60,363 nucleotides of DNA, from the NCBI GenBank assembly GCA_934169415.1, contig CAKPNP010000002.1:1-60363 (forward strand), written 5' to 3'. The notes under the pieces were generated by a model. That model had not been told where the DNA came from, made no database searches, and worked only from the letters and a program-made list of their open reading frames with translations. The number at the start of each line of letters is the position of its first letter. Position 1 is the stretch's first letter. This document shows positions 379 through 51,512 of the stretch, piece after piece. Position numbers and translations under genes: made by a program. Origin of the DNA: an uncultured Bacilli bacterium. Lineage in GTDB: Bacteria > Bacillota_I > Bacilli_A > RF39 > UBA660.

Positions 379-390
379 AAGGAGGATACT

Positions 391-1053: not shown

Positions 1054-1120
1054 ATATAGAAAAATGTACAGATTAATATCAAAAAAAAATTAAAATCATA
1101 TTATATACTAGGTGATTATA

Positions 1121-1498: not shown

Positions 1499-1573
1499 AA
1501 GTCTTGCATTTGTTATTAAAAAATGATATTCTTTAATTGTAGCAGGATAGCTACTTACATAGGAGGTAAACAA

Positions 1574-1846: not shown

Positions 1847-1849
1847 TTT

Positions 1850-1875
1850 AAACTGTTAACTGTTTAACAGTTTTT
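1850..1875 (+). terminator. Rho-independent terminator of hup
   Basis: AAACTGTTAA-ctgt-TTAACAGTTT 10-bp stem plus T-run. Confidence 0.8.
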
Positions 1876-1906
1876 ATTTTTGTGATAAAATATATTTGGT
1901 GATTTT

Positions 1907-2449: not shown

Positions 2450-2453
2450 TAAT

Positions 2454-3116: not shown

Positions 3117-3148
3117 AAAGGTGTTATAATAATATGGGAGATGATTAT

Positions 3149-4618: not shown

Positions 4619-4632
4619 TATATAACTTTTAT

Positions 4633-4662
4633 AAAGTACGATTGATAAAATTGTACTTTTTT
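4633..4662 (+). terminator. Rho-independent terminator of gpmI
   Basis: AAAGTAC, 13-nt loop, GTACTTT plus T-run. An extended -10 (TGtTATAAT, 4662-4670) for dus follows. Confidence 0.6.
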
Positions 4663-4686
4663 GTTATAATTAACTAGGTGATTTTA

Positions 4687-5649: not shown

Positions 5650-6196
5650 AAGATTTTGTGCATACTTAATTGATATTTTAATAATATTTAGTTTAACTTT
5701 TTTTATAGATACTACGTTTAAAAACGAATATGATTTAGAATTATCTATATTAAATCAAAGATTATTTGAAAATAGAATTGATAAAAAAGAATACTTTGAA
5801 AGTTATAAACATCTAATACATGAAAGTGATAAAAAAGATATTGGTGTAAATATAGCATCAACTGTAATCATTATAATATTTACAGTACTTATTCCATATT
5901 GTATGAATACTACTATAGGATATAAAATATTTAAATTAAAAATATGTAGTGATAATGTATTAACTAAAAATGATTTGATTGGCAGAAGTGTTTTACTATA
6001 TGGATTAGGCTTTATGTTATTTATGTTTATGATACTTTATATACCAAATGATAATATTTATTTTATTTTAATAAATTTATTTTCATTTTTACAACTTTTA
6101 GTAGTAATTATAAGTGCTTTTATGGTATTATATAGTTATAAACATTTATCTATTGCTGATAGATTTACAAATACGAGAATTGAGGAGATAAAATGA
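5639..6196 (+). CDS. RDD-family integral membrane protein
   Basis: Several hydrophobic helices and a C-terminal ADRFTNTRI motif. ATG 5639 follows AGGTGA. Its TGA stop overlaps the lysS ATG. Confidence 0.65.
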   Translation: MIFKRFCAYLIDILIIFSLTFFIDTTFKNEYDLELSILNQRLFENRIDKKEYFESYKHLIHESDKKDIGVNIASTVIIIIFTVLIPYCMNTTIGYKIFKLKICSDNVLTKNDLIGRSVLLYGLGFMLFMFMILYIPNDNIYFILINLFSFLQLLVVIISAFMVLYSYKHLSIADRFTNTRIEEIK

Positions 6197-7668: not shown

Positions 7669-7677
7669 GTGATTAAA

Positions 7678-9702: not shown

Positions 9703-9708
9703 AAAAAT

Positions 9709-10239
9709 ATGAAATTATATGTTATAAGGCATGGTGAAACTCTAGAGAATTCTAAAGACTGTTTAGTCGGAAGAATAAACAGTGGATTAGATGAAAATGG
9801 AATTTTACAAGCTAAAAAAGTAAAAGAATATTTTAAAGATAAAAATATAGACTTAATAGTATCATCACCTTTAGATAGATGCAAACAAACCGCAGAAATA
9901 ATAAGTGATGGTAATATCAAAATAGAATATAGTGATAAATTATTAGGCCGTGATCATGGAGAGTTTACAGGAGCTAAAAAATCTTCTATAAACTTTTCTG
10001 ATTATTGGAATTATAATAAAGATATCAAATATGAAAAGGCTGAATCAGTTAGAGATTTATACAATAGAGTAGCATTATTGGTAGATGACTTAAAAAAATA
10101 TGGTGATAAAAATATTATAATTGTTACACATAGTGGAATAATGAGAGTATTATATTATTATTTTAAAGGAATTCCAGCTGATGGAGTTCTAGGTGAAATA
10201 ACGATTCAAAATTGTGAAGTATTTGAATATAATTTATAA
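9709..10239 (+). CDS. histidine phosphatase (phosphoglycerate mutase-like) family protein
   Basis: The MKLYVIRHGETLEN RHG motif and a later VTHSG histidine motif. Confidence 0.85.
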   Translation: MKLYVIRHGETLENSKDCLVGRINSGLDENGILQAKKVKEYFKDKNIDLIVSSPLDRCKQTAEIISDGNIKIEYSDKLLGRDHGEFTGAKKSSINFSDYWNYNKDIKYEKAESVRDLYNRVALLVDDLKKYGDKNIIIVTHSGIMRVLYYYFKGIPADGVLGEITIQNCEVFEYNL

Positions 10240-10253
10240 AGAAAGAAGGATTT

Positions 10254-11441
10254 ATGAAAGTATTATCGGTAAATGCTGGAAGTTCATCATTGAAATTTCA
10301 AATGTATGAAATGCCAGAAGAAAAAGTTTTAATTTCAGGAGTTTTTGAAAGAATTGGAATTGATGGAAGTTTTTACACTATTAAATATAATGGTGAAAAA
10401 TTAAAAAGAGAAGTTAGATTAAAAACTCATGTCGATGCTGTTGAATATTTAGTAGAAGAATTAATTAAAAATGGTGTCATAAAACAATTAGATGAAATAA
10501 AAGCAATTGGACATAGAATTGTTCATGGAGGCGCTAAATACAATAAATCAGTAATAATAACTGATGAAGTTATAAAGGATATCGAGGATTTAATTCCTTT
10601 AGCACCACTTCATAATAAAGCGCATTTAATGGGAATAAGAGCATTTATAAAAGAAATACCTAATGCTTTAGAAGTCGCTTGTTTTGATACAGCTTTCCAT
10701 CAAACTATAGATGAAGAAAGATATTTATATGCTGTTCCAAATGAATGGTATACAAAATATGGAATTAGAAAATATGGATTTCATGGAATGAGTCATAAAT
10801 ATGTTTCAGAAAGATTAACTGATATTTTAGATAAAAAATATTCTAATATTATTGTTTGTCATTTAGGTAATGGTGGATCTGTTTCAGCAGTAAGAGATGG
10901 TAGATGTGTTGATACATCTATGGGATTTACTCCAAATGCAGGTATAGTAATGGGTTCACGTTCAGGTGATATTGATTACAGTATCATTCCATATATTATG
11001 AAAAATACAGGACTTTCAATAGAAGAAGTTGATACTATTTTAAATAAAAAAAGTGGTATGTTAGGTATTAGTGATATAAGTAGTGATTTTAGAGATATAG
11101 AAGCTAAAATTAGTGAAAATGATCATAAAGCTAAAATGGCACATTATTTATTTGTAAATTCTGTTGTTAGCTATATAGCTAAATATTATGTTGAGTTAGG
11201 TGGCGTTGATGCAATTGCATTTACAGCAGGTGTTGGTGAAAATTCAGCTCATGTTAGAAGAATGATTCTTGATAGATTAACTTGTTTAGGTATAAAAATC
11301 GATAAAGAATTAAATGAAGAAATGAGATTTGGAAAAGAAGGCTTAATTACTAAGGAAGATTCAAGTGTTCCATGTTATGTAATTCCAACTGATGAAGAAG
11401 TTATGATTGCTCGTGATTCATACTCATTTATAGAAGGCTAA
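10254..11441 (+). CDS. ackA: acetate kinase
   Basis: MKVLSVNAGSSSLKFQ, GHRIVHGG, FTAGVGENS. Confidence 0.95.
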   Translation: MKVLSVNAGSSSLKFQMYEMPEEKVLISGVFERIGIDGSFYTIKYNGEKLKREVRLKTHVDAVEYLVEELIKNGVIKQLDEIKAIGHRIVHGGAKYNKSVIITDEVIKDIEDLIPLAPLHNKAHLMGIRAFIKEIPNALEVACFDTAFHQTIDEERYLYAVPNEWYTKYGIRKYGFHGMSHKYVSERLTDILDKKYSNIIVCHLGNGGSVSAVRDGRCVDTSMGFTPNAGIVMGSRSGDIDYSIIPYIMKNTGLSIEEVDTILNKKSGMLGISDISSDFRDIEAKISENDHKAKMAHYLFVNSVVSYIAKYYVELGGVDAIAFTAGVGENSAHVRRMILDRLTCLGIKIDKELNEEMRFGKEGLITKEDSSVPCYVIPTDEEVMIARDSYSFIEG

Positions 11442-11455
11442 AAGGCCTTTTTTTG
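11434..11455 (+). terminator. weak Rho-independent terminator of ackA
   Basis: AAGGC-6 nt-GCCTT followed by T7. The stem is short. Confidence 0.4.
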
Positions 11456-11509
11456 TGGACTAAATTTTTTAAATATAGTATAATAGTTTTGGTAGAAAGA
11501 GTGATTTAT

Positions 11510-12457
11510 GTGAATCATAAAAAAATACTAAAAGCAATAAAAAAATATAATAATATTATAATAGCTCGTCATGTTGGAGCTGATCCTGATGCACTTGGAA
11601 GTAGTGTAGGATTAAAGGAAATAATCAAGTATAATTTTCCAAATAAAAACGTTTATGTTGTTGGAAATTCATCTAGTAGATTTAAGTATTTTGGAGCAAT
11701 GGATAAAAATGTTAAAACTGATGAAAGCCTATTAATTGTTACAGATACTCCTGATAGGAAAAGAGTAGATGGAGTAAATCCTGATGATTTTGAATTTAAA
11801 ATTAAAATTGATCATCATCCATTTATAGAAAAGTTTTGTGATATAGAATATATAGATGATACAGCATCATCAGCAAGTCAAATGATTATTGAATTTGCAT
11901 TTAAATCTAACTTAAAAATTCCTAAAAGTGCTGCAGAAAAATTATTTATGGGAATAATTGGAGACACTAATAGATTCTTGTATAATTATACTACTGTTAA
12001 AACATTTGATTTAGTATCTTCTTTAATAAAAAAAACAGGTATAGATTTTGTTTCATTATATCCACAGATGTATTCTAGAAATTTAAATGATTTAAAATTC
12101 AATGCCTATATAACAACAAATATGATAGTAACAGAAAATAAACTTGCTTATATAAAGTTAGATGAAAAAACTTTAAAAGAACACAATGTTGATGCTTCAA
12201 CAGCAGGTAATTTAATTAATAATTTTGATAATATTGAAGAAATATTGGTGAGTATTTTTTGTTCTTATGATTCAGTTAATAATTATATTAAATGTTCTAT
12301 AAGATCTCGTGGTCCAGTTATAAATGTTATAGCTTCACAATTTAATGGTGGTGGACATGCCTTAGCAAGTGGCGCTAAGTTAAAGAGTTTTGAAGAATGT
12401 GACGAATTAATAAAAAAATTAGATCAGGCTTGCTTAGAATACGTTAATAATATATAA
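11510..12457 (+). CDS. nrnA: DHH/DHHA1 phosphoesterase (NrnA-type oligoribonuclease / pAp phosphatase)
   Basis: HVGADPDALGS, KIDHHPF (DHH) and GGGHALASGA (DHHA1). GTG 11510 lies downstream of a TAGTATAAT -10 and a purine-rich RBS. ORF-track TTG 11453 sits in the ackA terminator. Confidence 0.85.
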   Translation: MNHKKILKAIKKYNNIIIARHVGADPDALGSSVGLKEIIKYNFPNKNVYVVGNSSSRFKYFGAMDKNVKTDESLLIVTDTPDRKRVDGVNPDDFEFKIKIDHHPFIEKFCDIEYIDDTASSASQMIIEFAFKSNLKIPKSAAEKLFMGIIGDTNRFLYNYTTVKTFDLVSSLIKKTGIDFVSLYPQMYSRNLNDLKFNAYITTNMIVTENKLAYIKLDEKTLKEHNVDASTAGNLINNFDNIEEILVSIFCSYDSVNNYIKCSIRSRGPVINVIASQFNGGGHALASGAKLKSFEECDELIKKLDQACLEYVNNI

Positions 12458-12478
12458 TAGATACTTAAAGGTGATAAT

Positions 12479-13597
12479 ATGGAGTTAAATAAAAAAAATA
12501 TTAAAATTATTATTTTACTTATTATGTTTACAGTATTATTTGTTTATGTAGTTAAAAATATTCCTTTTATATTAGGTATAGTAATGAAAATAATAAATGT
12601 TTTCTTTCCTTTTATATTGGGATTATGTTTTGCATTTGTTTTAAATGTAATAGTTTCATTAATAGAAAATAAATTAAAAAAAATTAAAAAATTAAATAAT
12701 AAAACAAGAAGGATAATTTCAATTACTATATCTATGTTAATAGTATTACTAGTTATATCGTTTGTATTAGTTTTAGTAATTCCAGATTTAATAGATGCTT
12801 TAACCCAGCTTATAAATACATTGCCTATAGCTTTAACTAATTTAGATAAGTATTTAACTAATCTTGTTAAAGATTATCCAGATTTAAAAAATTACATTGA
12901 TTCAATTAATTTTGATAATATAACTTCTAATTTAGTTAATTTTGTAACTGGTAGTATGGATGTACTATTATCTAATTCAATTAATTTTATATCAAATATA
13001 ATATCTAGTATAACGTCATTTGTAATGGGAATTGTATTTTCGGTTTACATTTTAGCTCAAAAAGAAACATTAGCTTTACAAGTAAAAAAAGTAATGAAAG
13101 CCTATTTAAGTGAAAATGTTAATAATAAAATTTTCGAAATATTAGATATATCAAATAAAACTTTTTATAATTTTATAACAGGACAGTGTTTGGAAGCTTT
13201 AATATTAGGTACTATGTTTTTAATAGCTATGACAATATTTAAATTTCCTTATGCGCTTGCTATATCTTCACTTATTACAGTAACTGCCTTAATACCAATA
13301 TTTGGGGCTTTAATTGCAAGTATATTTGGGGTAATACTAATAGCTGTAACATCTCCAGTACAGGCGTTTTGGTTCTTTGTGATGTTCCAGATAATACAAC
13401 AAATTGAAAATAATTTGATATATCCTAAAGTAGTAGGTAAAAAGGTAGGATTACCTGCTTTATGGGTAATGTTAGCAGTATTAGTAGGGGGCAATTTATT
13501 TGGATTATTTGGAATGCTTGTAAGTGTACCAGTATCAAGTATTTTATATTCTATATTTAAAACTAAAGTAAATGAAAGGGTTAACAATGATCGATAA
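12479..13597 (+). CDS. AI-2E (PerM/UPF0118) family transporter
   Basis: About 8 TM helices and a conserved C-terminal IENNLIYPKVVGKKVGLP block. RBS AGGTGAT. Confidence 0.85.
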   Translation: MELNKKNIKIIILLIMFTVLFVYVVKNIPFILGIVMKIINVFFPFILGLCFAFVLNVIVSLIENKLKKIKKLNNKTRRIISITISMLIVLLVISFVLVLVIPDLIDALTQLINTLPIALTNLDKYLTNLVKDYPDLKNYIDSINFDNITSNLVNFVTGSMDVLLSNSINFISNIISSITSFVMGIVFSVYILAQKETLALQVKKVMKAYLSENVNNKIFEILDISNKTFYNFITGQCLEALILGTMFLIAMTIFKFPYALAISSLITVTALIPIFGALIASIFGVILIAVTSPVQAFWFFVMFQIIQQIENNLIYPKVVGKKVGLPALWVMLAVLVGGNLFGLFGMLVSVPVSSILYSIFKTKVNERVNNDR

Positions 13598-14216
13598 GGT
13601 AATATCATTAATAAAAAGTGAACCTTTTAATATACCTCCTATATTAATTAAAAATTATAGAAAATTAAATATAACAGATTCTGAATTTATTTTAATAATA
13701 TATTTAATTAATACTGATTCAAGTTTTAATCCTAAATTAATAGCAAAAGATTTAAATTTTACTTTAAACGAAGTAATGGACCTAGTTAATTCATTAGTTG
13801 AAAAAGATATATTAAAAATTGATATTGTTAATAATAAGGTTATGGAAGAAATTATTAATTTAGATGAATTATATAATAAAATATCTTTTTTAGTAGTTAA
13901 TGGCGAGACAAAAAAAGAAAAAACAAATATATTTGATAAATTTGAAAGTGAATTTGGTAGAACTTTATCTCCTCTTGATTATGAAATTATTTCGGATTGG
14001 CAAAAGGATTTTAACGATGAAATTATTCTTCTAGCTCTTAAAGAGGCTGTATTTAATGGAGTTACAAATTTAAGATACATAGATAAAATCATTAGAGATT
14101 GGGATAAAAAAGGTATAAAAAATGAAAAAGATGTTTTAAATGATAAGAAAAAATATAAAGAAAAAAAACAAAATAAATTATTTGATTATGATTGGTTAAA
14201 TGAAAGAGATAATTGA
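13587..14216 (+). CDS. dnaD: DnaD-domain replication initiation protein
   Basis: C-terminal DnaD/DnaB_2-type repeat FESEFGRTLSPLDYEIISDW...LRYIDKIIRDWDKKGI. It precedes nth as in B. subtilis. Confidence 0.8.
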   Translation: MIDKVISLIKSEPFNIPPILIKNYRKLNITDSEFILIIYLINTDSSFNPKLIAKDLNFTLNEVMDLVNSLVEKDILKIDIVNNKVMEEIINLDELYNKISFLVVNGETKKEKTNIFDKFESEFGRTLSPLDYEIISDWQKDFNDEIILLALKEAVFNGVTNLRYIDKIIRDWDKKGIKNEKDVLNDKKKYKEKKQNKLFDYDWLNERDN

Positions 14217-14802
14217 TTATTTAAATGAAATTATACCTGATCCTAAATGTGAATTAAATTATAATAAAGATTATGAATTATTAATTGCTACTATGTTAAG
14301 TGCTCAAACTACAGATAAAAGAGTAAATGAGGTAACTAATATTTTATTTAATAAATATAAAAATTTAGAGGAATTAAGAAATGCTTCAGTAACAGATATA
14401 AAAGAAATTATAAAACCACTTGGTACATATAATAAAAAAGCATTAAATATAATAGGAATAGCTAATAAATTAAAGGAATCTAATGATATTGTTCCAAATG
14501 ATAGAGATTTCTTAGAAAAATTACCTGGTGTTGGTAGAAAAACTACTAATGTTGTTTTAAGCAATATATATAATGAACCATATATAGCAGTAGATACTCA
14601 TGTACAAAGGGTAAGTAAAAGACTTGGTATAACTAAAAGTGATGATGTTTTAGTAACTGAAAAAAAATTATATAAATTTTTTAAAGGTGAAAATTATTGT
14701 AGATTACATCATCAATTATTATTATTTGGCAGATACTATTGTAAGGCTATAAAACCTAGTTGTGATAGTTGTAAATTAAAAAATATATGTAAAAGGAGTT
14801 AA
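14200..14802 (+). CDS. nth: endonuclease III
   Basis: HhH-GPD LPGVGRKTTNVVL and the CX6CX2CX5C cluster CKAIKPSCDSCKLKNIC. Confidence 0.9.
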   Translation: MKEIIDYLNEIIPDPKCELNYNKDYELLIATMLSAQTTDKRVNEVTNILFNKYKNLEELRNASVTDIKEIIKPLGTYNKKALNIIGIANKLKESNDIVPNDRDFLEKLPGVGRKTTNVVLSNIYNEPYIAVDTHVQRVSKRLGITKSDDVLVTEKKLYKFFKGENYCRLHHQLLLFGRYYCKAIKPSCDSCKLKNICKRS

Positions 14803-33063: not shown

Positions 33064-34284
33064 ATGGCAGAATATATTAATGAAATTTTAAATAGTTACA
33101 ATTTAAATTTAGAACATACAATAAATATTATTTTATCACAGCCACATTCATGTCCATATTGTGGAGGAATGCTGTCTTTAGGCACTTGCAAGTATTGTGG
33201 TAATAAAAATGAATTACTAGAAGATAGTATATTAAAGTTAAATTGTCCCTTAAAAACCTTACTTAATATATTTGAAAATTTAAATATTACAGATATAGGA
33301 ATAAATCATTTATTTAATAATTTATTAAAATTAGATAAATATAATATTGATATAGTAAAAAAGTTAATAGATAAATTTAATTATAAAAATAAAATTCTTG
33401 ATACACTTAAGAAAGACAAAGCTACAGATATAGAAAAAGAGTATTTAAATTGTTTAGTTGATTTAAATGATCCTAAACTAAATGTATCTTTATGTGATGC
33501 ATTTACAATATCAGCAGTATCTGGTAAAAAATGTGTTGATTATGATACATTTAAAAAAATATTTACAAATTACGTAGAAGATGTATTAGGAGAGTACATA
33601 GGAAAATCTCACTGTATAGTAGAAGAAAATCTAATGGCATATGGTAGAGAGGTTAATGGTCTTGCTTCTGGTAATGATATTGCAATAAACGATAAAAACT
33701 TAAAAGATTTGTATGATGGAAAATCAATTCAATTTATAGAAACACTTTTTCATGAGATGCGTCATACTGTTCAACATAAAATATACCGTGATGGTCTAAC
33801 TAATGATTACGTATTAAATATGATTAAAGATGAAATTTTAAGTAAGAATGAAAAATATTATATGGATAATTATGATAGGGTTTTATTAGAGTTAGATGCG
33901 GAATATAACGGTATGGAGAGTACAATTAACTATTTTAAACACTATAAAATAGATTTGGAAGTATTTAGGTATTATGAAGAAAAAATGAAAGAAATAAAAG
34001 AAAAAATGAGTGATAAAACAAGAATAGTAGATGGTACTTTAAGAAACCTTGATGATATTTTTAATGAATATATTAAAGATAAGCCAGATTTATTAAATGA
34101 ATATAAACAATTAAATTATATATATAAAGTAGATAATGGAATTGTTGTAGAAAAAAGTTTTGATGAAATGATTAGTGATTATAATCATTTGATGGAATCT
34201 AATAATGATGAAAATGTAAGATTAGTATATAAAGAATTACTAAGTAAAAAAATTGATTGTGATACTAATATAAAACATATATGA
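33064..34284 (+). CDS. zinc-ribbon plus HExxH metallopeptidase-like protein (406 aa)
   Basis: N-terminal CPYCGG...CKYCGN ribbon and an internal TLFHEMRHTVQH motif. No TM helix or signal peptide. Confidence 0.6.
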   Translation: MAEYINEILNSYNLNLEHTINIILSQPHSCPYCGGMLSLGTCKYCGNKNELLEDSILKLNCPLKTLLNIFENLNITDIGINHLFNNLLKLDKYNIDIVKKLIDKFNYKNKILDTLKKDKATDIEKEYLNCLVDLNDPKLNVSLCDAFTISAVSGKKCVDYDTFKKIFTNYVEDVLGEYIGKSHCIVEENLMAYGREVNGLASGNDIAINDKNLKDLYDGKSIQFIETLFHEMRHTVQHKIYRDGLTNDYVLNMIKDEILSKNEKYYMDNYDRVLLELDAEYNGMESTINYFKHYKIDLEVFRYYEEKMKEIKEKMSDKTRIVDGTLRNLDDIFNEYIKDKPDLLNEYKQLNYIYKVDNGIVVEKSFDEMISDYNHLMESNNDENVRLVYKELLSKKIDCDTNIKHI

Positions 34285-34288
34285 TAAT

Positions 34289-34326
34289 AAAAAAACATTT
34301 AGATTATTTTAATTTAAATGTTTTTT
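34289..34326. terminator. bidirectional terminator
   Basis: AAAAACATTTA, 13-nt loop, TAAATGTTTTT 11-bp stem between convergent genes. Confidence 0.7.
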
Positions 34327-34661
34327 AGTCATGTTTTATTACTGAATCACATTTAGCACAATCAAATATTGGATATTTATTATATTTAATTAAATCTTTT
34401 ATTAAGGAATATGGGATTTCTGTTTCATATTTACAATTATCACATTTATATTTAATAAATTTAGGTGTATTTTCTTCATCTATACATAATTTATACATAT
34501 CAATACCCAATATTAATGATATACGCCAAAGTGCACCTAATGAAAATGTTTGATTTTTTTTACTTTCAAGACCAGATACAAAAGATGATGAATAACCTAT
34601 TTTTTCAGCTAATTGTTCTTGTGTTAACTTTTTTTCTTTTCTGTATTTTTAGTATTTCCAA
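34325..34661 (-). pseudogene. XRE-family HTH plus C-terminal zinc-ribbon regulator whose reading frame is broken in an A7 tract
   Basis: On the minus strand, TTG 34661 gives MEILKIQKRKK, runs into A7 (34629-34635) and stops soon after. The adjacent frame is open from 34648 and encodes KLTQEQLAEKIGYSSSFVSGLESKKNQTFSLGALWRISLILGIDMYKLC plus a CDNC...CAKC ribbon, ending at TAA 34325-34327. That frame has no ATG/GTG/TTG before 34510. Loss of one A would fuse both parts. Confidence 0.6.
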
Positions 34662-34779
34662 TTTGCTTACATATTATTATCTAATAAAAAATAATAAAAT
34701 TTGTATTACTATTTATACAAGTATTTTTGACAAAATTAGTTAAAATATGTAAAAGTATTTGTGTAAATATTATAAATTA

Positions 34780-34788
34780 TGGTATAAT
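34780..34788 (+). promoter_or_regulatory. extended -10 promoter element of the T7SS operon
   Basis: TGgTATAAT lies 23 nt upstream of ATG 34812, with the GGGAGGGG RBS between them. Confidence 0.45.
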
Positions 34789-34811
34789 TAGTATAGAATA
34801 GGGAGGGGCTT

Positions 34812-35063
34812 ATGAACAAATATCTGATTACATTTGTAGTTCCTTGTATAGAAATGCAATTTGATGCTTATATTCCTATTAATAAAAAAATAGGAACACT
34901 TAAAAAATATGTATTGTCTTCCTTAATGCAATTATCAAATGGTGCATATAGGCAAACTTCATCTATTACATTTATTGATAAGGAAACTGGTATTATCTTT
35001 GATAATAATATTTTGATTAAGGAATCTTCTATTCAAAACGGAACTAAAATAGTAATTATTTAG
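34812..35063 (+). CDS. esaB: YukD/EsaB-like ubiquitin-fold T7SS protein
   Basis: 83 aa with a beta-grasp pattern (FDAYIPINKKIGTLKKYVL ... IQNGTKIVII). It is the first gene of a WXG100/EssC operon. Confidence 0.7.
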   Translation: MNKYLITFVVPCIEMQFDAYIPINKKIGTLKKYVLSSLMQLSNGAYRQTSSITFIDKETGIIFDNNILIKESSIQNGTKIVII

Positions 35064-35076
35064 AGGAGGTGAAACG

Positions 35077-35367
35077 ATGAATTCAACACGTTTACATGTA
35101 TCAGAAAATGCTTCAAATATAGGTGCACAAATAGTTTCAAAATCTGAATCTTTAGTTGAATTATTAGGTAAAGTTGAGACTACTAATACTGAAATACAAG
35201 AGGCCTGGGCTGGAAAAGATGCTACAGATTATTCTGCAAGATTAACAGAACAATGTGTAGAAATCAAAAAATTATTTGAAACAGCTATAGCTACAGGTAA
35301 TGCTTTACAAAGTGCTGCAAAAGCATATATGGATGCTCAAAGTGCTAATAGTACTTATGGTGCATAA
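35077..35367 (+). CDS. esxA: WXG100 family T7SS substrate (EsxA-like)
   Basis: 96-aa helical hairpin with a central EAWAGKDA (W-x-G). RBS GGAGGTGA. Confidence 0.85.
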   Translation: MNSTRLHVSENASNIGAQIVSKSESLVELLGKVETTNTEIQEAWAGKDATDYSARLTEQCVEIKKLFETAIATGNALQSAAKAYMDAQSANSTYGA

Positions 35368-35381
35368 GAAAGGAGAAAAAA

Positions 35382-35678
35382 ATGACTGATATAAATTATG
35401 TTAAATTAGAAGAATGTGCAACTAAATTAACTGGTTTAAATAGAGAAATTAAGGATCTTGCAGATGACATGAATGGTAATTTATTTTCAAAAATTGGTAT
35501 TGATGGAGAAGATTGGGGAGGAGAAGCTGCTGAAACAGCTAGACAAACTCTTAATCAATTATATGCAAGATTAATGGATGTTGTTTCTATAATAGATGCT
35601 GATGTTAAAAATATAAATACAGTAGTTGCAAATTATAAAAATGTTGATCAAACATTTGGACAAGTATTTAATCAATAG
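35382..35678 (+). CDS. WXG100 family T7SS substrate (second paralogue)
   Basis: 98 aa with a central EDWGGEAA (W-x-G). RBS AAGGAG. Confidence 0.85.
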   Translation: MTDINYVKLEECATKLTGLNREIKDLADDMNGNLFSKIGIDGEDWGGEAAETARQTLNQLYARLMDVVSIIDADVKNINTVVANYKNVDQTFGQVFNQ

Positions 35679-35699
35679 TCTCTAGAAATAGAGTCTTTG

Positions 35700-35731
35700 A
35701 CAAATAGATAACTTATAAGTTATCTATTTGT
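35700..35731 (+). promoter_or_regulatory. perfect 14-16 bp stem-loop between the esx pair and the rest of the operon
   Basis: ACAAATAGATAACTTA/TAAGTTATCTATTTGT palindrome with no T-run after it (GAGAGAGGG RBS follows). Candidate attenuator or mRNA-stabilising/processing hairpin. Confidence 0.5.
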
Positions 35732-35745
35732 GAGAGAGGGTTATT

Positions 35746-36039
35746 ATGGTTAATGTAGATAAAGACGGTATAAGACTAACTGCTAATAACATGCTGGAAT
35801 GTATAGAAGAATATAAAAATGAAATATCTGAATTTGTAAATATAATTAATGATTTAAATGATGCTTGGAATGGAAATATAGATGCTAGTAATTGCATAAA
35901 TAATATGAATAAACTATATTTAGAAAATTTAAGTGTCTTGTATCTTAAATTGCAAGAATATCAGGTATATTTACAAAATATACCTGGTTTATATGATTTA
36001 TTAGATGAAATATATGTTAGTAAGAAAATAAATATTTAG
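35746..36039 (+). CDS. divergent WXG100-like small helical protein
   Basis: 97 aa with a central DAWNGNID (W-x-G). Confidence 0.65.
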   Translation: MVNVDKDGIRLTANNMLECIEEYKNEISEFVNIINDLNDAWNGNIDASNCINNMNKLYLENLSVLYLKLQEYQVYLQNIPGLYDLLDEIYVSKKINI

Positions 36040-36047
36040 GAGGATTT

Positions 36048-36368
36048 ATGGCAGTCAATGTTAATTACCAAAAGTTTAATGCGTGTATAGAAAATCTTAT
36101 GAAATTAAATGACAAAGTTTATGAAAATTTAAATAACTATGTAACTCTTGGTACATCTTTAGAAAAAAAATCCATATGGAATGGAATTGTATCAGAAAGT
36201 TATATGAATAATATTAGTTTATTACAATATGAAATAGAAGAAATACGTACTCAAATTTTAAATATGATTTCACAAATGCAAAGTAATTACAATCATTATA
36301 AAAGTACAGATCAATTCTTTAATGAGACGTTTTCAAATATTTTTTCACAAATTTCTAAAGCAAGGTAA
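36048..36368 (+). CDS. divergent WXG100-like small helical protein
   Basis: 106 aa with a central SIWNGIVS (W-x-G). RBS AGGAGGA. Confidence 0.65.
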   Translation: MAVNVNYQKFNACIENLMKLNDKVYENLNNYVTLGTSLEKKSIWNGIVSESYMNNISLLQYEIEEIRTQILNMISQMQSNYNHYKSTDQFFNETFSNIFSQISKAR

Positions 36369-36370
36369 TT

Positions 36371-36877
36371 ATGAATTTAAATAGTATAAATGTTGAACTT
36401 CTAAAAAAAGCAATTAATGATTGCATTAATTCTATAAATAAAAGTTCTAGTGAAAAAATTTGTACAAGCATTATGGATTCATCTATTTGGATAAATGATT
36501 GCAAAAGTGAGTTAAAAAATGGATTAGAAAAATTTGAAGACATTTACAAAAAACTTTTAGATACATTAAATTCTTATAAAGATAATGTGATTCCTAAAAT
36601 TGAAAAATATCAAGAATACGTTTTGAATAATACTAATTTGTCTAATGAAATAGAAGAATTAAAAAAGAAATTATATTATGAAGAAAATGAGGAATATGAA
36701 GATTGGGATAATATTGGAACATTTGATGAACCAATAAATGTAGTAGTGAAAAAAACAAGAACAGTAACTAAAATTGATAATACAGTTAAAAATTTAATAG
36801 AATCCAAAGAAAATGAAATAAAAAATAATAGGGAATCTATGGAAAATATAGAAAGAATAATCATGAATTTTATTTAA
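36371..36877 (+). CDS. helical T7SS accessory protein candidate (168 aa)
   Basis: Predicted all-helical. A degenerate SIWINDCK sits at the WXG position, followed by an acidic coiled-coil tail. It lies immediately upstream of the giant cargo gene. Confidence 0.5.
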   Translation: MNLNSINVELLKKAINDCINSINKSSSEKICTSIMDSSIWINDCKSELKNGLEKFEDIYKKLLDTLNSYKDNVIPKIEKYQEYVLNNTNLSNEIEELKKKLYYEENEEYEDWDNIGTFDEPINVVVKKTRTVTKIDNTVKNLIESKENEIKNNRESMENIERIIMNFI

Positions 36878-36900
36878 GTAATAGAAAGGGTTGAAGTACT

Positions 36901-46100: not shown

Positions 46101-47786
46101 GTTAAATCAAATGGTGAGGAATTAATAAATATTGTTAAATACTTACAAGATCAAGCAGAAAGTTTAAATATTGTAACGACTCCTTTATGGTTAGAAAAAA
46201 TCAAAGATTCTATAAGAATAGAAGATTTAGCTTTAAAATATAAATATACTAAGGAAAATTTTGTTATTAATCCAATAATAGGAGAATATGATGTACCTAA
46301 AAAACAAGAACAAAGGTTACTAACGCTTCCTATATCAAAAGAAGGAAATACATTAGTTTATGGTGCAAGTGGTTCTGGTAAAGAAAATTTTGTAACAACC
46401 TTAATATATTCTTCTATGTTATATTATAGTGCTAAAGAATTAAATTATTATATAGTAGATTATGGTTCAGGATCTCTTAATATATTTAAGGATTCTAGTA
46501 TAGTTGGTGATATAGTAACACCTGATGATACTGATAAGCTATCTAATTTATTTAAATTACTACAAACTAATATTGATGAAAGAAAAAAATTATTTCAAGA
46601 TTATAACGGGGATTATTATAACTATTGTAAAAATAGTGGTTCTACATTGCCATCTATTATAGTAATTATAAATAACTTTGAAGCATTTACAGAATTATCA
46701 AACAAATATGAAGATATTTTAAATAGTATTACAAGAGATTGTAATAAATACGGAATATATTTTGTGATTTTATCAAATACTCCAAATGGTGTAAGATTCA
46801 AATTAAAACAAAACTTTAGTTTAATTTATGCATTATCGCAAAATAATGACGATGATTTTACTACGATATTAGGTAATATTTATAAAACTTATCCAAGTAA
46901 GATATTCGGACGTGGAATATTTAAAACTGATGATGTTTATGAATTTCAAACTTGCTTGGTAACTGAAAAAGATGATATACCTAGATTTATTAAAGCTAAA
47001 TGTATGGAATATAGAAAAAATAGTACCGTATTTGCAAATAAAATACCTATGCTTCCAAAGTGTGTTACTTATAATGATATAGCAACGTATTTGGATAGCA
47101 AAAATTATATAATAGGTTTAAATAAAGAAAATTTAGAAATAAAAGAATACGATTTTAATAAAAATGCTGTTTCTATTATAACTGGAACTGATATTAATCA
47201 AACAGAAAATTTAGTTAATCCACTTATAAATCAAATAGTATATAAAAAGATATCTACATTATTAGTTATAAATGCAACAGATTATGATATAAAAAATAAA
47301 TTTAATTATAAATATGTTGATTTTGATTTTGATTCTATATTTTCTGAGTTGATGAATTATTTAGATAAACAGGAAGAAATAATAAAAAATTCTAGTAATA
47401 AAAATATATTTAGTAATACGAAAAAATTGCTATGTATGATAATAGGGATTGATCAATTTAAATCAAGTTTAAGTGATGAAAATAAATCTAAGTTTAACAA
47501 TTTATTTACTAAAGCTAAAAGTTTAGGCACAATCAAATTTATAATTGTAGATAGTATTGATAAGATTAAAAAATTTGAGTTTGAAACTTGGTATAAAGAA
47601 TGCGTTAATACAAATTATGGAGTTTGGGTAGGCAATGGTATAAATGATCAATTTAGTATTAAAATTAATCAAAAAATACCAGAAATGAAAGAATTAATAC
47701 CAAATAACTTCTGCTTTGTCATAACAAGAGGTAAGGCAGATTATGTAAAATATGTTGAAAGATTTGACATAAGCAGCAAGAATTAG
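43182..47786 (+). CDS. essC: T7SS FtsK/SpoIIIE-family ATPase EssC
   Basis: FHA-like N-terminal region and two TM helices (LLTIGPMLTMSMTSLVSGYVAV, ALPSIIMCVAMFASIFIWPTI). P-loops GSTGSGKSE and GASGSGKEN plus a degenerate third ATPase domain. FIICDEFAEL Walker B. Confidence 0.92.
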   Translation: MRVSLIKNDKKIDLILPEQISGSYWITDLDKSGNRKNLISIEAVDNTWHLVSNDDIYVMNNNLIEPYKTLVNNEFTILKNKETNENIILYCSSVLQKYNCYDINSYIEDGFNIGPLGVISSPVLNNVNIVVRKEHDDIVIINDGSKAPIYVNDVRLEGKRKLKNADIVFTQGVMFFIVKKQDVKNVYYLYLNNVDINISAKLTMTKLVDNQSDTVEEKDEIDIPLYEDSDYFHKTPRFIPKIKTLNLSVDAPPSKQEDKDQSILLTIGPMLTMSMTSLVSGYVAVNNVLSGSSTIKSALPSIIMCVAMFASIFIWPTISRRVEARNRKKKEKERQKKYGAYIESKKLDIQKAIDQQSSILNNNYPSIKDCEQIVLNKYTTLWQRRIEDDDYLVINLGVGSYPMKIDIKYPEEHFSLFQDNLKDMVQSLGAEPKLLPNVPIIYSLYDNYITGIIGSYSETSKYLKNVILQCVTHHSYDNLKIVIFTDEEKQKDYEYLSFLPHLFTDDKELRLYATNNDEYKEICYYLDREFNKRSELTKELTKEDLDYTYLIITDSFKAIRNYDVINNIIKSKKNLGFSIVILDKNITDLPTECKSFISIKDGTGEMHANDYYIKPLKFEYDKKLVIDYDKIVNKLANIPIERQLSKDGKLPNKLGFLEMFDVGKIEQLNSINRWKNNNPILNLQAPVGYGKNTEKISIDLHEKYHGPHGLIAGSTGSGKSEFIITYILSMAVNYHPYEVQFILIDYKGGGLAGAFENKVTGLKLPHLVGTITNLDANEIKRSLASIESELKRRQSLFNKAREISGESTIDIYKYQKMYRDKIVNVPISHLFIICDEFAELKTQQPDFMQQLISTARIGRSLGVHLILATQKPSGVVDPQIWSNTRFRVCMRVQEKSDSNEVIKCPDAAYLKQTGRFYFQVGYNEVFVLGQAAWAGGKYIPREKVKKNIDTNINFINNIGYIYKNIETKEKEINVKSNGEELINIVKYLQDQAESLNIVTTPLWLEKIKDSIRIEDLALKYKYTKENFVINPIIGEYDVPKKQEQRLLTLPISKEGNTLVYGASGSGKENFVTTLIYSSMLYYSAKELNYYIVDYGSGSLNIFKDSSIVGDIVTPDDTDKLSNLFKLLQTNIDERKKLFQDYNGDYYNYCKNSGSTLPSIIVIINNFEAFTELSNKYEDILNSITRDCNKYGIYFVILSNTPNGVRFKLKQNFSLIYALSQNNDDDFTTILGNIYKTYPSKIFGRGIFKTDDVYEFQTCLVTEKDDIPRFIKAKCMEYRKNSTVFANKIPMLPKCVTYNDIATYLDSKNYIIGLNKENLEIKEYDFNKNAVSIITGTDINQTENLVNPLINQIVYKKISTLLVINATDYDIKNKFNYKYVDFDFDSIFSELMNYLDKQEEIIKNSSNKNIFSNTKKLLCMIIGIDQFKSSLSDENKSKFNNLFTKAKSLGTIKFIIVDSIDKIKKFEFETWYKECVNTNYGVWVGNGINDQFSIKINQKIPEMKELIPNNFCFVITRGKADYVKYVERFDISSKN

Positions 47787-47799
47787 TTTCTTGCTTTTT
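47775..47799 (+). terminator. Rho-independent terminator of the T7SS operon
   Basis: AGCAAGAA-ttagt-TTCTTGCT plus TTTT, overlapping the essC stop. Confidence 0.75.
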
Positions 47800-47833
47800 A
47801 TATTATAAAAATGCTATAATTGTATGGGGGAAA

Positions 47834-48796
47834 ATGTTATATATGACAAAAGAGCAACTATTAAAAATAAATGTAGTTTTGGAAGATTATTTAAATTATT
47901 TATATAAAGTTAATCCTTTATTACTTAATAATATAAATTTTTTTGAAAATCTATTTTATCCATTTGAATTTGAATGTAATATAAAATTGAAGTTTAAAAA
48001 TATTAGTGCAACTGAAACATTTAAATTAGTTTTAGAATTCTATAAAAAATATTATAAAGAAGATATAGATTATATAAAAGATTTATTTGATAAAGGATTT
48101 TTTAGTATTTCTTATGCATCTGAAACTACAAAAGATTCTTGTCAATATGGCAAATTTATTGATTTTGTGTTTTATTCTAAAACTATAGATTTAAATATGG
48201 TTGCGCATGAATTAAGACATTTATTAAATAGTCCAGAAACAAGGAGAAATTGTGATAATGATGCATTAACAGAAGGTTTATCTTTGTTTGATGAATTATT
48301 ATTTTGTGATTTTTTAAAAGATAAAATAGGTATTGATGAAGTAAAAAATTTAGAACTGTTTAATTTTTATAAGTCATATGATTATATGATAAATTCATAT
48401 ATGGTATTACATTTATTAAATATTAAAAATAATTATAGTTATTTAAATGAAAAAAATTATATTGAATATTTTAATTCTACAAAAGAAGAGTATAATAGTG
48501 TTTGTTCATATTTTTTAAATAAATATAATTCATACGAAGATATTACATTGCATACAGACTTTTTTTATGGATTTGGTAATTTTATTTCGCATTATATATT
48601 TAATAAATTTAAAGAAAACCCAGAATTTTTAAATAAGTTTAAAAAATTAAATAGTTTAGTAAAAGAAAATAAAAGTGTTTCAGAATGTTTAAATGCTATT
48701 GATATAGATATAACAAGTATTAACATAATATCTGATTTAAGAAATGTAATATATGAATATATAAAAGATAATATAGAAATAAATAAAATTAAATAA
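47834..48796 (+). CDS. HExxH (gluzincin-like) metallopeptidase-like protein (320 aa)
   Basis: VAHELRHLLNS...ALTEGLSLFDE (HExxH plus a downstream Glu). It has its own extended -10 (TGcTATAAT, 47812-47820). No terminator separates it from the next two genes. The start could be ATG 47843. Confidence 0.6.
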   Translation: MLYMTKEQLLKINVVLEDYLNYLYKVNPLLLNNINFFENLFYPFEFECNIKLKFKNISATETFKLVLEFYKKYYKEDIDYIKDLFDKGFFSISYASETTKDSCQYGKFIDFVFYSKTIDLNMVAHELRHLLNSPETRRNCDNDALTEGLSLFDELLFCDFLKDKIGIDEVKNLELFNFYKSYDYMINSYMVLHLLNIKNNYSYLNEKNYIEYFNSTKEEYNSVCSYFLNKYNSYEDITLHTDFFYGFGNFISHYIFNKFKENPEFLNKFKKLNSLVKENKSVSECLNAIDIDITSINIISDLRNVIYEYIKDNIEINKIK

Positions 48797-48819
48797 AATA
48801 TTATTTAATGGAGGTACTT

Positions 48820-50181
48820 ATGGATAAATATAATGAATTAAGAAGCTTATATGATGAATTTATTTATGAAAGTTATGATATTGTAGATAATGTAGACAGT
48901 TATAAAATTATTTATAATTTTGAAATCAAAGGATTAACTAAATTTAATCCTACTATAGAAATATCAAAAAAATATCTAAATGAATTTGATGATAATATTA
49001 ATAATCTTATATTTCATATAGGTTTAGTAGAATTAATTAGTTACTGGAAATGTAGTTGTCCAAAAAATGTAATTATTAAATGTGGGTATATAAATGAAGA
49101 ACAAATAAAATTCTTTAAAAAGCTTTATTATTATGGACTTGGTGAATTTTTCTATGTAAATAAAATAGATACTACAATAGATGATTTTATGAATATAACG
49201 GTTTTATGTGATAAAAAGGAAATAAAAAAATCTACTCGTAAGTTAGATGGATGTTTAATTCCAATTGGTGGTGGTAAAGATTCTTGTGTTTCATTAGAAA
49301 TATTATCAGGATATAACAATAAGTGTTTTATGATAAATCCAAAAAGTCCAATGTTAGAATGTGCTAAAATAAAGGGTTATGAAATGGATGATATTGCTAT
49401 TATAAAAAGAACAATTGATAAAAAATTAATTGAATTAAATAGTTTGGGATATTTAAATGGGCATACACCGTTTTCTGCTTATGTTGCATTTTCTAGTTAT
49501 TTAATGGCATATTTAACTGGTAAAAAATACATAACATTATCAAATGAGGGAAGTGCTAATGAATCTACTGTAATAGGAACTAAAATAAATCATCAATATT
49601 CAAAAACTTATGAATTTGAATCAGATTTTAATAATTATACTAAGAAATTCTTTAATATAGATATTATGTATTTTAGTTTTTTAAGACCATTAAGTGAATT
49701 GCAAATTGCAATGTTATTTAGCCAGTATAAAAAGTTTCATAAGGTATTTAAAAGTTGCAATGTAGGTAGTAAAAGTATTCCTTGGACTTGGTGTTGTAAT
49801 TGTGCTAAATGTATGTTTGTTTATATCATTTTAAGTCCATTTTTAAATAAAGATGAACTAGTAGAAATATTTAATGAAGATTTATATGATAAAGAAAGTC
49901 TTTTAAATTATTTTATTGAGTTAACAGGTAATAGTTTAACTAAGCCATTTGAATGTGTTGGAACGACACGTGAAGTTAGATTTTGTATAAGCTATGTAAT
50001 AAAAAAACTAATAAGTGAAAATAAAAAATTACCTTATTTATTAAATTATTACTATGAAAATTATGAATTATCTGATACGTCTGTTGATATATTAGAAGAA
50101 TTTAATTTGGAAAATAATTTACCAGAAAAATTTACTTATATGTTAAAAGAGGAGTTAGAAAAATGTATAACAAAATTATAG
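48820..50181 (+). CDS. PP-loop (N-type ATP pyrophosphatase-like) protein; candidate MurL-type UDP-MurNAc-L-Ala-L-Glu epimerase
   Basis: IPIGGGKDSCVS resembles the SGGxDS PP-loop. There is a Cys cluster, CNVGSKSIPWTWCCNCAKC. ATG 48820 follows GGAGG. The 3-prime end overlaps the MurD-like gene by 19 nt. Confidence 0.45.
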   Translation: MDKYNELRSLYDEFIYESYDIVDNVDSYKIIYNFEIKGLTKFNPTIEISKKYLNEFDDNINNLIFHIGLVELISYWKCSCPKNVIIKCGYINEEQIKFFKKLYYYGLGEFFYVNKIDTTIDDFMNITVLCDKKEIKKSTRKLDGCLIPIGGGKDSCVSLEILSGYNNKCFMINPKSPMLECAKIKGYEMDDIAIIKRTIDKKLIELNSLGYLNGHTPFSAYVAFSSYLMAYLTGKKYITLSNEGSANESTVIGTKINHQYSKTYEFESDFNNYTKKFFNIDIMYFSFLRPLSELQIAMLFSQYKKFHKVFKSCNVGSKSIPWTWCCNCAKCMFVYIILSPFLNKDELVEIFNEDLYDKESLLNYFIELTGNSLTKPFECVGTTREVRFCISYVIKKLISENKKLPYLLNYYYENYELSDTSVDILEEFNLENNLPEKFTYMLKEELEKCITKL

Positions 50182-51512
50182 AAAAATTAAAAAATAAAAA
50201 TGTAGCAATATTGGGATTTGGAAAAGAGGGTAAATCTACTTATAATTTTATAAGAAGACACCTTGATTTAAAATTAACAATATTAGATAAAGATAAAGAA
50301 TTAATTAATAAAAATCAGTTTTTAGCTGATGATAAAAATTTAGATTTTGTACTTGGGAGTACATATTTAGATAATTTATCTAGATTTGATATAATTATCA
50401 AGTCTGCTGGTGTTAGTCTAAAGGACATTGATACAACTGATTATTTAGATAAATTAACTAGTCAATATGCACTTATATTAGAAGATACTGATCTTTTTAC
50501 AATTGGTGTTACAGCATCTAAAGGCAAAACTACAACTACAACATTAATATATAATATTATATCTAAACAAAGAGATAACGTATATTTATTAGGTAATATG
50601 GGTAATCCTCCATTAGACTATATAGAAAGTTTTAATAAAGATAGTATACTTGTTATAGAACTTGCAGCTTTACAATTAGAATATGTAAGAAAATCTTGTA
50701 ATATTTCATGTATATTAAATTTATTTTTGGAGCATTTAGATTATTTTGGTGATAAAGATAAATATTTTAGGGCTAAATTAAATATTTGCAAGTATCAAAA
50801 TGAATCAGATTATTTGATATATTCTATGGATAATGAAACTTTATTAAATTATGTAAGTAATATGGATATAAAATCTAAAAAAGTATCTGTTTCTCTAAAT
50901 GATAGTAGTGATATTAAATTAGTTGATAATAAAGTATATTATAATGATACTTTATTGTATATTGATGACAATAAAAGAAAATTATTGGGTAATCATAATC
51001 TAGAAAATATTATGTTTGCTTTAGGGGTAGTTAAAATATTAAATTTAGATATACCTGATGCAGTTAATACTATAAACTCATTTTCTCCTATTGAACATAG
51101 GATGGAATTTGTAGGAACATATAATGATATTAAATTTTATAATGATTCTATAGCTACAATACCTGAGGCAACAATTAATGCAATAGAAGCTATAGGAGAT
51201 GTTGATACATTAATATTTGGTGGAATGGATAGGGGAATAGATTATAACAAATTTATAGATTATTTAAATAATAGTAATATATCTAATTTTATTTGCTTAC
51301 CTGATACCGGATATAAATTAGCTCCTAGCTTAACTAAAAATGTATATATGATAGAAGAAATGGATGAAGCTGTTAAAATAGCTTATAAAGTAACAAAAAA
51401 AGGAAGTTCATGCTTACTTTCTCCAGCGGCTTCAAGTTATAACAAATATAAAAATTATATAGAAAAAGGTTCTTTATATAAAGAATGTGTAAAAAAGTAT
51501 AAAGAAAAATAG
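50163..51512 (+). CDS. murD: MurD-family UDP-N-acetylmuramoyl-L-alanine--glutamate ligase (possibly L-Glu-adding MurD2 type)
   Basis: VAILGFGKEGKS Rossmann N-terminus, GVTASKGKTTTTT P-loop, NLFLEHLDYF, GNHNLEN, PIEHRMEF. NDSIATIP stands where canonical MurD has NDSKATN. Confidence 0.8.
   Translation: MYNKIIEKLKNKNVAILGFGKEGKSTYNFIRRHLDLKLTILDKDKELINKNQFLADDKNLDFVLGSTYLDNLSRFDIIIKSAGVSLKDIDTTDYLDKLTSQYALILEDTDLFTIGVTASKGKTTTTTLIYNIISKQRDNVYLLGNMGNPPLDYIESFNKDSILVIELAALQLEYVRKSCNISCILNLFLEHLDYFGDKDKYFRAKLNICKYQNESDYLIYSMDNETLLNYVSNMDIKSKKVSVSLNDSSDIKLVDNKVYYNDTLLYIDDNKRKLLGNHNLENIMFALGVVKILNLDIPDAVNTINSFSPIEHRMEFVGTYNDIKFYNDSIATIPEATINAIEAIGDVDTLIFGGMDRGIDYNKFIDYLNNSNISNFICLPDTGYKLAPSLTKNVYMIEEMDEAVKIAYKVTKKGSSCLLSPAASSYNKYKNYIEKGSLYKECVKKYKEK

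Follow-up and report, generated by a model that had tools for sequence, protein, structure and literature searches.

Whether a type VII secretion system (T7SS) can be complete with an ATPase and a small ubiquitin-like protein as its only dedicated machine parts is the question raised by the locus described here. The locus lies at positions 34812-47786 of a stretch of 60,363 nucleotides of contig CAKPNP010000002.1, from an uncultured Bacilli bacterium (this whole stretch, which has a GC content of 24%, is referred to as the window). It encodes an EssC-type ATPase, a YukD-like protein, small WXG proteins and a giant candidate toxin. It is unsettled which of the components of a T7SS constitute the channel and which act as scaffold or regulator. 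With slightly better than even confidence, and on the grounds of sequence comparison, the locus is taken to be a complete and probably functional T7SS of a reduced, undescribed variant, found in uncultured low-GC gut Bacilli that are represented by metagenome-assembled genomes (MAGs) related to Mycoplasmatota.

Gene content of the operon and placement of its ATPase

A previous sequence-only reading of this DNA had proposed a single operon that starts with a YukD-like protein, contains two canonical WXG100 proteins (one with W-A-G and one with W-G-G) and three WXG-like helical ones, and has EssC as the sole product with convincing transmembrane helices. The single string of genes is borne out by nine intact open reading frames (ORFs) that are packed on the + strand between 34812 and 47786, with intergenic gaps of 2-67 nucleotides:

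34812-35063, + strand: YukD/EsaB-like (TsxB) ubiquitin-like protein, 83 amino acids (hidden Markov model, HMM, of clostridial YukD-type proteins)
35077-35367, + strand: WXG100 protein 1, 96 amino acids, W-A-G (PF06013, TIGR03930, BLAST cluster c0)
35382-35678, + strand: WXG100 protein 2, 98 amino acids, W-G-G (PF06013, TIGR03930, NF035934, cluster c0)
35746-36039, + strand: WXG-like helper 3, 97 amino acids, W-N-G (cluster c0, synteny in relatives)
36048-36368, + strand: WXG-like helper 4, 106 amino acids, W-N-G (PF06013 at E 0.047; fourth position kept in relatives)
36371-36877, + strand: c4 family protein, 168 amino acids (conservation in related loci)
36901-42636, + strand: polymorphic toxin candidate, 1911 amino acids, TTG start (N-terminal domain common to relatives)
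42644-43162, + strand: soluble protein, 172 amino acids, probable cognate immunity protein (position and co-variation with the toxin)
43182-47786, + strand: EssC-type (TsxC) FtsK/SpoIIIE ATPase, 1534 amino acids (TIGR03928; YukB in PDB entry 9QKS)

A T7SS, broadly taken, comprises TsxA, TsxB and TsxC, and the membrane ATPase of the EssC/EccC type that this requires is present. The window EssC scores 988 bits against TIGR03928 (E 6.9e-297, cut-off 778.4) and matches Bacillus subtilis YukB (9QKS) with an E of 7.4e-120; a sequence look-up returned no exact match on record. The protein is full length, with a canonical Walker A motif in D1 (GSTGSGKSE), and its domain order is a degenerate tandem FHA region, two transmembrane helices, the DUF and the ATPase domains. 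Its two hydrophobic segments span residues 263-281 and 297-315. Hydropathy calculated in 19-residue windows confirms that EssC stands alone in this respect, given that no other operon product exceeds 1.4, the giant protein having three weak hydrophobic segments near 1.3.

The YukD-like nature of the first protein is also upheld. The HMM built from 23 clostridial YukD-type proteins recognises it with an E of 1.9e-17 (59.7 bits), and 11 of the 47 members of the wider YukD-like family match the Pfam YukD model PF08817. The 83-amino-acid protein itself has no direct match in Pfam or in the PDB, and a PDB search with the profile of the family recovered no YukD.

For the WXG proteins, the earlier description stands for the W-A-G and W-G-G pair, but W-N-G in the 97- and 106-amino-acid proteins brings the number of WXG-motif proteins from two to four. 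The protein with W-A-G matches PF06013 at E 0.023 and, weakly, TIGR03930 at E 5.8e-4, while that with W-G-G matches PF06013 at E 5.3e-5, TIGR03930 (again weakly) at E 1.4e-4 and NF035934 at E 4.8e-7. The pair obtains 23.8 and 15.4 bits with PF06013, under the cut-off of 27.3, and is also under the curated cut-off of TIGR03930. Their membership of WXG100 is for this reason based on BLAST clustering with Pfam-significant WXG100 proteins, since cluster c0, with 144 members, includes WXG proteins that pass the Pfam WXG100 threshold. The 97-amino-acid protein has a conserved C-terminus (...YDLLDEIYVSKKINI), and it and the 106-amino-acid protein, which keep their synteny in relatives, are candidates for Lap-like partners of the toxin.

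Relatives of the window EssC number in the hundreds and are all metagenomic, and a scan of species-representative genomes led to 80 EssC loci. In the 80-EssC alignment the window EssC is 23-27% identical to the EssCs of canonical T7SSb (Listeria, Bacillus, Limosilactobacillus and Enterococcus), 35-38% to T7SSe-like EssCs and approximately 40% (up to 41%) to those of other low-GC groups. A neighbour-joining tree without bootstrap separates the T7SSb EssCs from all others. The fact that TIGR03928 is passed does not show membership of T7SSb, because T7SSe-type EssCs also score above its cut-off (1043-1100 bits, with 1886 bits for the Listeria EssC). The distant relatives (33-41%) belong to Lachnospiraceae, other Clostridia, a Paenibacillus and a Bacillus MAG. 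In the last of these (locus L056), according to a Pfam scan, essC-yukD-WXG-WXG precedes genes for membrane proteins, for a DUF6382-FHA protein, for a PP2C phosphatase and for a Ser/Thr kinase, and BLAST clusters extend this gene set to the other distant loci. Judged by its genes, this set is that of T7SSe, or of the related T7SSj, as defined in PMC11217815.

HMMs of the T7SSe accessories (PP2C, kinase, DUF6382-FHA and T7SSe membrane proteins, including clusters c6, c3 and c26) gave no credible match in the window or in the close clade. Matches of the c7 HMM in loci L017 and L020 were rejected as a component, as they run through Ig-like (Big_2-type) repeats of surface proteins. The second FHA domain (FHA2) of the T7SSe-type EssCs (L053-L077) keeps the motifs GR, SxxH and STNGT, at which the alignment places GPL, LNNVN and DGSKAP in the window EssC, while some members of the clade partly retain the phosphothreonine-binding residues. 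FHA-family HMMs match T7SSe EssCs and none of the EssCs of the window's clade. The degenerate state of FHA2 would fit a loss of phospho-regulation along with the kinase and the phosphatase.

Membrane partners in the window and in related loci

The lack of EssA, EssB and EsaA beside essC, which had been noted from the letters of the sequence, is confirmed by curated models, by purpose-built models and by inspection of the other membrane proteins of the window. Pfam and NCBIfam models of the three families gave nothing at E<=0.1 in the nine operon proteins. Neither the membrane pseudokinase EssB/YukC (PF10140, TIGR03926) nor the small membrane protein EssA/YueC (PF10661, TIGR03927) was matched in the operon proteins, none of the small products having a hydrophobic segment, and the polytopic envelope protein EsaA/YueB (TIGR03929) was matched neither in the operon nor in the other membrane proteins of the window. 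The only TIGR03926 match in the window, of 15 bits, falls inside a RodZ-like protein. The remaining membrane proteins are of the housekeeping kind (PBP1A, the RodZ-like protein and RNase Y), as is the rest of the window. Additional HMMs were built from five canonical T7SSb plasmid loci (Listeria, two of Bacillus mycoides, Limosilactobacillus and Enterococcus), all of which have the order esxA-esaA-essA-esaB-essB-essC, and were run on 21,005 six-frame ORFs of at least 30 amino acids from the window and 83 loci. Those of EssA and EssB returned nothing at E<=1, and that of EsaA returned a single EsaA/YhgE-like match, in a clostridial MAG outside the clade (L042).

The comparison across relatives points the same way, with the reduced gene set being kept in 41 related loci. 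These close loci, with 48-61% EssC identity, come from gut MAGs labelled "uncultured Bacilli/Tenericutes" and from Candidatus Faecisoma, which is filed by NCBI under Mycoplasmatota incertae sedis. They amount to 795 kb, with a median of approximately 10 kb on each side of essC and at least 5 kb on both sides in 23 of them. ORFs were called in all loci and clustered by BLAST, from which two arrangements are seen. Group A, the type of the window, has YukD, two to four WXG proteins, c4 (approximately 160 amino acids), DUF4176, two variable proteins, the first giant and the second small, and EssC; DUF4176 (PF13780) is found in relatives within this group and is absent from the window. Group B has a 200-amino-acid WXG-like protein, YukD, a 130-amino-acid protein, a toxin of approximately 460 amino acids with a phage-lysozyme domain, EssC and a 347-amino-acid P-loop protein. 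The genomic surroundings differ between loci while the reduced module stays together, and among the 41 loci neither group has a conserved membrane gene next to essC. Clusters c25, c17, c18, c19, c20, c24 and c34, conserved beside some of the loci, were considered as hidden membrane parts and rejected once they had been identified as TilS, FtsH, ParA, ParB, an AbgT-type transporter, signal peptidase I and ribosomal protein L19. Of these, FtsH, the transporter and the peptidase are the membrane proteins that recur near essC, and the others are housekeeping proteins as well.

Three further observations concern these and other loci. The P-loop protein of group B (c8, with a receiver-like N-terminus and without a Pfam or NCBIfam match) directly follows essC in L009, L013, L019, L022, L027-L029, L033, L039 and L057, and may be the counterpart of TsfV of T7SSf. 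A gene for an LtaS-type lipoteichoic acid synthase stands beside the T7SS locus in L001 (970-3012) and in L073 (before c11-essC), two unrelated genomes in which this adjacency may be a coincidence. Locus L088, on the Agathobacter rectalis plasmid NZ_CP143948.1, was rejected as a member of the clade given that its EssC is nearer to canonical T7SSb (37% to B. mycoides) and that an integrative element interrupts it. At 7426-11854 it holds YukD, an ORF for FHA on its own and a shortened essC, with the integrative element directly downstream and no annotated EssB, EsaA or EssA within 8 kb upstream.

In the mechanism proposed for the window locus, EssC and YukD would be enough for the membrane channel. 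A hexamer of EssC would form it with two transmembrane helices per subunit, and YukD would hold the FHA and DUF regions of the ATPase in a clamp, as it does in the core unit of B. subtilis. In that core unit YukB, YukC and YukD occur as 1:2:1, the YukB subunits touch each other and form a central channel, and YukD binds YukB extensively, clamping FHA and DUF (PMC12637312). The WXG100 pair of 96 and 98 amino acids would be secreted as substrates recognised by the ATPase domains of EssC. The same domains would recognise the 1911-amino-acid toxin, targeted through its family-specific N-terminal helical domain, with the 97- and 106-amino-acid proteins, and possibly also the 168-amino-acid protein, assisting. 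The 172-amino-acid protein would protect the producer. Direct results of the analysis are the gene content, the homologies, the conservation and the swapping of cassettes between strains; secretion activity, a channel formed without partners and the parts played by toxin and immunity protein are inferred from them.

As for origin, the system would be nearer to the kinase- and phosphatase-regulated T7SSe than to T7SSb. The fact that it has neither accessory set, together with the loss of the phosphothreonine-binding residues of FHA2, points to evolutionary reduction. It is possible, though not quite probable, that in this walled gut lineage with small genomes the machine has no dedicated parts beyond EssC and YukD, having been reduced from a T7SSe-like ancestor regulated by phosphorylation. 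The cell-wall genes of the window include those for PBP1A, MurD and the RodZ-like protein.

Several points weigh against a complete locus without further membrane parts. To our knowledge, EssC/EccC needs membrane partners in every T7SS that has been studied experimentally. The purpose-built HMMs are weak, with five sequences each, and a very divergent partner could be missed by them; the matching HMM of canonical EsaB finds the YukD of the clade only at E 0.004-0.17. The EssC comparison covered canonical T7SSb, T7SSe-like and other low-GC EssCs, and the position relative to T7SSf, T7SSi and T7SSj lies outside it. In addition, FHA2 of Staphylococcus aureus recruits EssB (PMC9436818).

The strongest of the alternatives, which is nonetheless rather unlikely, is a split locus in which further membrane parts, whether EssB-, EsaA- or EssA-like or specific to the lineage, are encoded elsewhere in the chromosome. 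The DNA inspected comprises the 60-kb window and approximately +/-10 kb around essC in the relatives, and partners encoded in trans lie outside this scope. Such partners are required by all characterised T7SS (PMC9436818, PMC12637312), and the window EssC retains the tandem FHA region that is the docking site of EssB in T7SSb. This FHA2 is, however, degenerate, and the accessory genes adjoin essC in the canonical T7SSb and the T7SSe-like loci examined, whereas the module that travels together through 41 loci of differing context never includes a membrane gene. The genomes are also small, one close relative being a complete chromosome of 1.49 Mb (OW818670.1).

An improbable alternative is that a partner is encoded in cis and has gone unrecognised. 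Either c4 or the giant protein, through its hydrophobic Gly/Ala-rich region, would then stand in for EssB or EsaA as a scaffold or as an envelope-spanning part. For c4, conservation speaks in favour of such a role, given that it is kept in 20 of the 41 related loci and is 100% identical between strains, unlike the swapped WXG pair. Nonetheless, it is missing from the group B loci and from several others, has no hydrophobic segment and shows no fold match to EssB, EsaA or EssA. Its alignment has a conserved Trp, and its AlphaFold2 model (pLDDT 86.7) consists of a helix, a beta-hairpin and a helix, for which Foldseek found no significant match among PDB folds (the best being prefoldin beta, E 0.4); the c4 profile gave nothing meaningful against the PDB, and a homologue search for c4 gave only near-identical proteins. 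For the giant proteins, those of the relatives have one to four segments above a hydropathy of 1.5, but their range of 648 to 2866 amino acids and their mosaicism are cargo-like.

In two c4 members, at 3775-4362 of L003 and 4982-5554 of L038, a LysM peptidoglycan-binding domain is inserted in the hairpin region, which lends some support to a partner in the envelope and is a hint of an extracellular or wall-associated place of action for c4.

Cassette swapping between near-identical strains and the flanks of the operon

The favoured reading, that of a complete and probably functional locus, is also consistent with what is seen between strains. A contig of a conspecific strain (L002), whose flanking genes are 94-100% identical to those of the window, allows the operon to be compared gene by gene. 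YukD and c4 are 100% identical and EssC 99.5%, while the 97- and 106-amino-acid helpers are 79% and 74% identical. The WXG100 pair (35077-35678) differs far more, with 36% (W-A-G) and 32% (W-G-G) identity to the proteins at 2267-2881 of L002 and 48-62% at the nucleotide level. The fact that this pair has diverged while YukD, c4 and EssC are near-invariant identifies it as a swapped cassette. The toxin is 97% identical over residues 1-853 and diverges beyond, and the 172-amino-acid protein is 72% identical where flanking genes are at least 99.5% identical. Differences so distributed are typical of a polymorphic toxin and its cognate immunity gene. Between near-identical strains, two cassettes have been swapped, one being the WXG100 pair and the other the C-terminus of the toxin together with the probable immunity gene. 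Given that export of EsxA is reported to depend on compatibility with EssC (PMC13355648), a swap of the WXG pair with an unchanged EssC is at odds with that report, and it may be asked which of the proteins serves as the conserved core substrate here.

The 1911-amino-acid protein is accordingly described as a candidate polymorphic toxin from its organisation, which combines a conserved N-terminus, a variable C-terminal part and an adjacent co-varying small gene. Its N-terminal helical domain, of approximately 95-130 amino acids and with Y66, Y76 and E84 invariant, is shared with 22 large proteins of related loci. The Gly/Ala-rich mid region is shared with several related giants, and the remainder is mosaic. 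A weak match to Tox-ART-HYD1 (E 0.012) covers residues 1002-1078, and the C-terminal region contains Cys and His without family matches. The LXG model PF04740 matches neither the giant nor 23 N-terminal domains, the N-terminal profile gave nothing meaningful against the PDB with its solved LXG structures, and the mid and C-terminal regions have no PDB match; a single-sequence AlphaFold2 model of the N-terminus was unusable (pLDDT 40). The 172-amino-acid protein has no Pfam or NCBIfam family match, and the gene in its position differs among relatives. It is probably the cognate immunity protein of the toxin, as judged by its place and its co-variation.

The signals around the operon and the divergent gene upstream of it are the following:

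34325-34660, - strand: divergent XRE helix-turn-helix (HTH)/zinc-ribbon regulator, N-terminally disrupted in the window (region considered, 34325-34700)
34727-34732, + strand: TTGACA of a possible second promoter, with TAAAAG 17 nucleotides downstream (read from the sequence)
34780-34788, + strand: extended -10 element TGgTATAAT (read from the sequence)
34800-34808, + strand: strong ribosome-binding site AGGGAGGGG before the first ATG of the operon
47775-47803, + strand: intrinsic terminator-like hairpin with a T-run, overlapping the essC stop codon

The extended -10 at 34780, from which the operon had been said to start, exists as an element but does not rise above the background of this AT-rich window, from which it is statistically indistinguishable; a scan with the promoter consensus found 133 sites where 136 are expected and is uninformative in DNA of such GC content. 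The terminator proposed at 47775 has a stem at 47775-47795 (8 bp, 3 GC pairs) across the essC stop, followed by the tail TTTTTATATT. It is the only good + strand terminator hairpin.

The regulator is intact in L002, with 127 amino acids and Pfam matches to HTH_19 and HTH_3. The copy in the window has a stop codon ahead of the HTH, with the next start codon only beyond it, and is probably a pseudogene. A decaying or non-functional T7SS remnant, which this disruption and the absent accessory genes might suggest, is very improbable, given that all nine ORFs are intact, that EssC is full length at 50-60% identity across dozens of genomes, and that EssC, YukD and c4 stay at 99.5-100% identity between strains while the cargo cassettes diversify, as fits an actively used toxin-delivery locus.

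The operon is flanked by two HExxH proteins, one of 406 amino acids with a zinc ribbon and HEMRH (33064-34284) and one of 320 amino acids with HELRH (47834-48796). Both are without family matches and are conserved only in L002. Farther downstream (48808-51512), a gene for a MurL-type epimerase lies directly upstream of murD and overlaps it, the Pfam matches to MurL_N and MurL_epimerase_C having been made on the identical orthologue in L002. This arrangement suggests a MurD2/MurL route to peptidoglycan D-glutamate in this Bacilli lineage. At 7669-9702, a secreted Cys-rich protein of 677 amino acids ends in a two-helix hairpin that matches T4SS_pilin (PF18895, E 3.9e-5). The region 352-14800 was considered as a conjugative element from this match and rejected, since the genes around the protein are housekeeping ones and nothing else related to conjugation was seen.

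Comparison with known type VII systems

The sequence-only reading had framed the locus as a T7SSb that had lost parts. This framing is not supported, given that the window EssC falls outside the T7SSb group and nearer to T7SSe-like EssCs, and that Garrett, Higginson and Palmer described in 2024 eight non-b variants (T7SSc-j), none of which has EssA, EssB or EsaA (PMC11217815). That survey was restricted to RefSeq (PMC11217815) and, for this reason, could not have sampled the MAG lineages in question.

With T7SSb, as known from S. aureus Ess and B. subtilis Yuk/Yue, the locus shares an EssC with N-terminal tandem FHA, two transmembrane helices, DUF and ATPase domains, a free-standing YukD/EsaB, WXG100 proteins and, in relatives of the window, the DUF4176 gene. 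The two also have in common a large toxin that is accompanied by small helical proteins and followed by an immunity-like gene. The locus differs in that its EssC obtains approximately half the TIGR03928 score (988 vs 1886 bits), in the absence of EssB/YukC, EsaA/YueB and EssA/YueC in cis, in the presence of four WXG-motif genes versus one esxA, and in a toxin N-terminus that is not Pfam LXG.

Leaving the low-GC groups aside, the EssCs closest to that of the window, at 35-38%, belong to T7SSe (PMC11217815), which likewise has two WXG100 genes that are not identical, a YukD-like TsxB and FHA domains on the ATPase. The kinase TseD, the PPM phosphatase TseF, TseJ (DUF6382-FHA) and the membrane proteins TseH/I/K of T7SSe were not found in the window, where FHA2 has degenerate phosphothreonine-binding residues and the YukD gene is upstream of essC and not downstream.

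The near-minimal T7SSg of Acetivibrio and Paenibacillus consists of two WXG100 proteins, a ubiquitin-like protein, the ATPase and one further component (PMC11217815). Compared by description only, its TsgC is without FHA domains, whereas the window EssC has them. No DUF5050 beta-propeller (TsgL) is found among the window operon products, and no Tad pilus genes stand beside the operon, where the neighbours that were scanned or matched to orthologues are housekeeping genes.

The cargo resembles the LXG toxins with Lap partners, such as Tel of Streptococcus intermedius, in its small WXG-like genes, in a large protein whose N-terminal helical domain is conserved, and in a variable C-terminal part with a co-varying small gene downstream. 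It differs from them in that the toxin N-terminus has no detectable similarity to PF04740 or to solved LXG structures.

A search of the literature found no paper that describes this gene arrangement. What would be new is that, at the loci examined, the accessories of the T7SSc-j variants, be they kinase, phosphatase, FHA or membrane proteins, also appear to be missing from the clade. If EssC and YukD are indeed the only dedicated parts, this lineage would define a natural minimal T7SS translocon and offer a compact gene set for reconstitution and structural work, and a Gram-positive envelope could be crossed by export without accessories of the EssB/EsaA/EssA type or of the kinase type. Beside the variants published so far, the locus looks like a further reduced, undescribed one, with which the catalogue of T7SSa-j, built on RefSeq, comes to include uncultured gut Bacilli.

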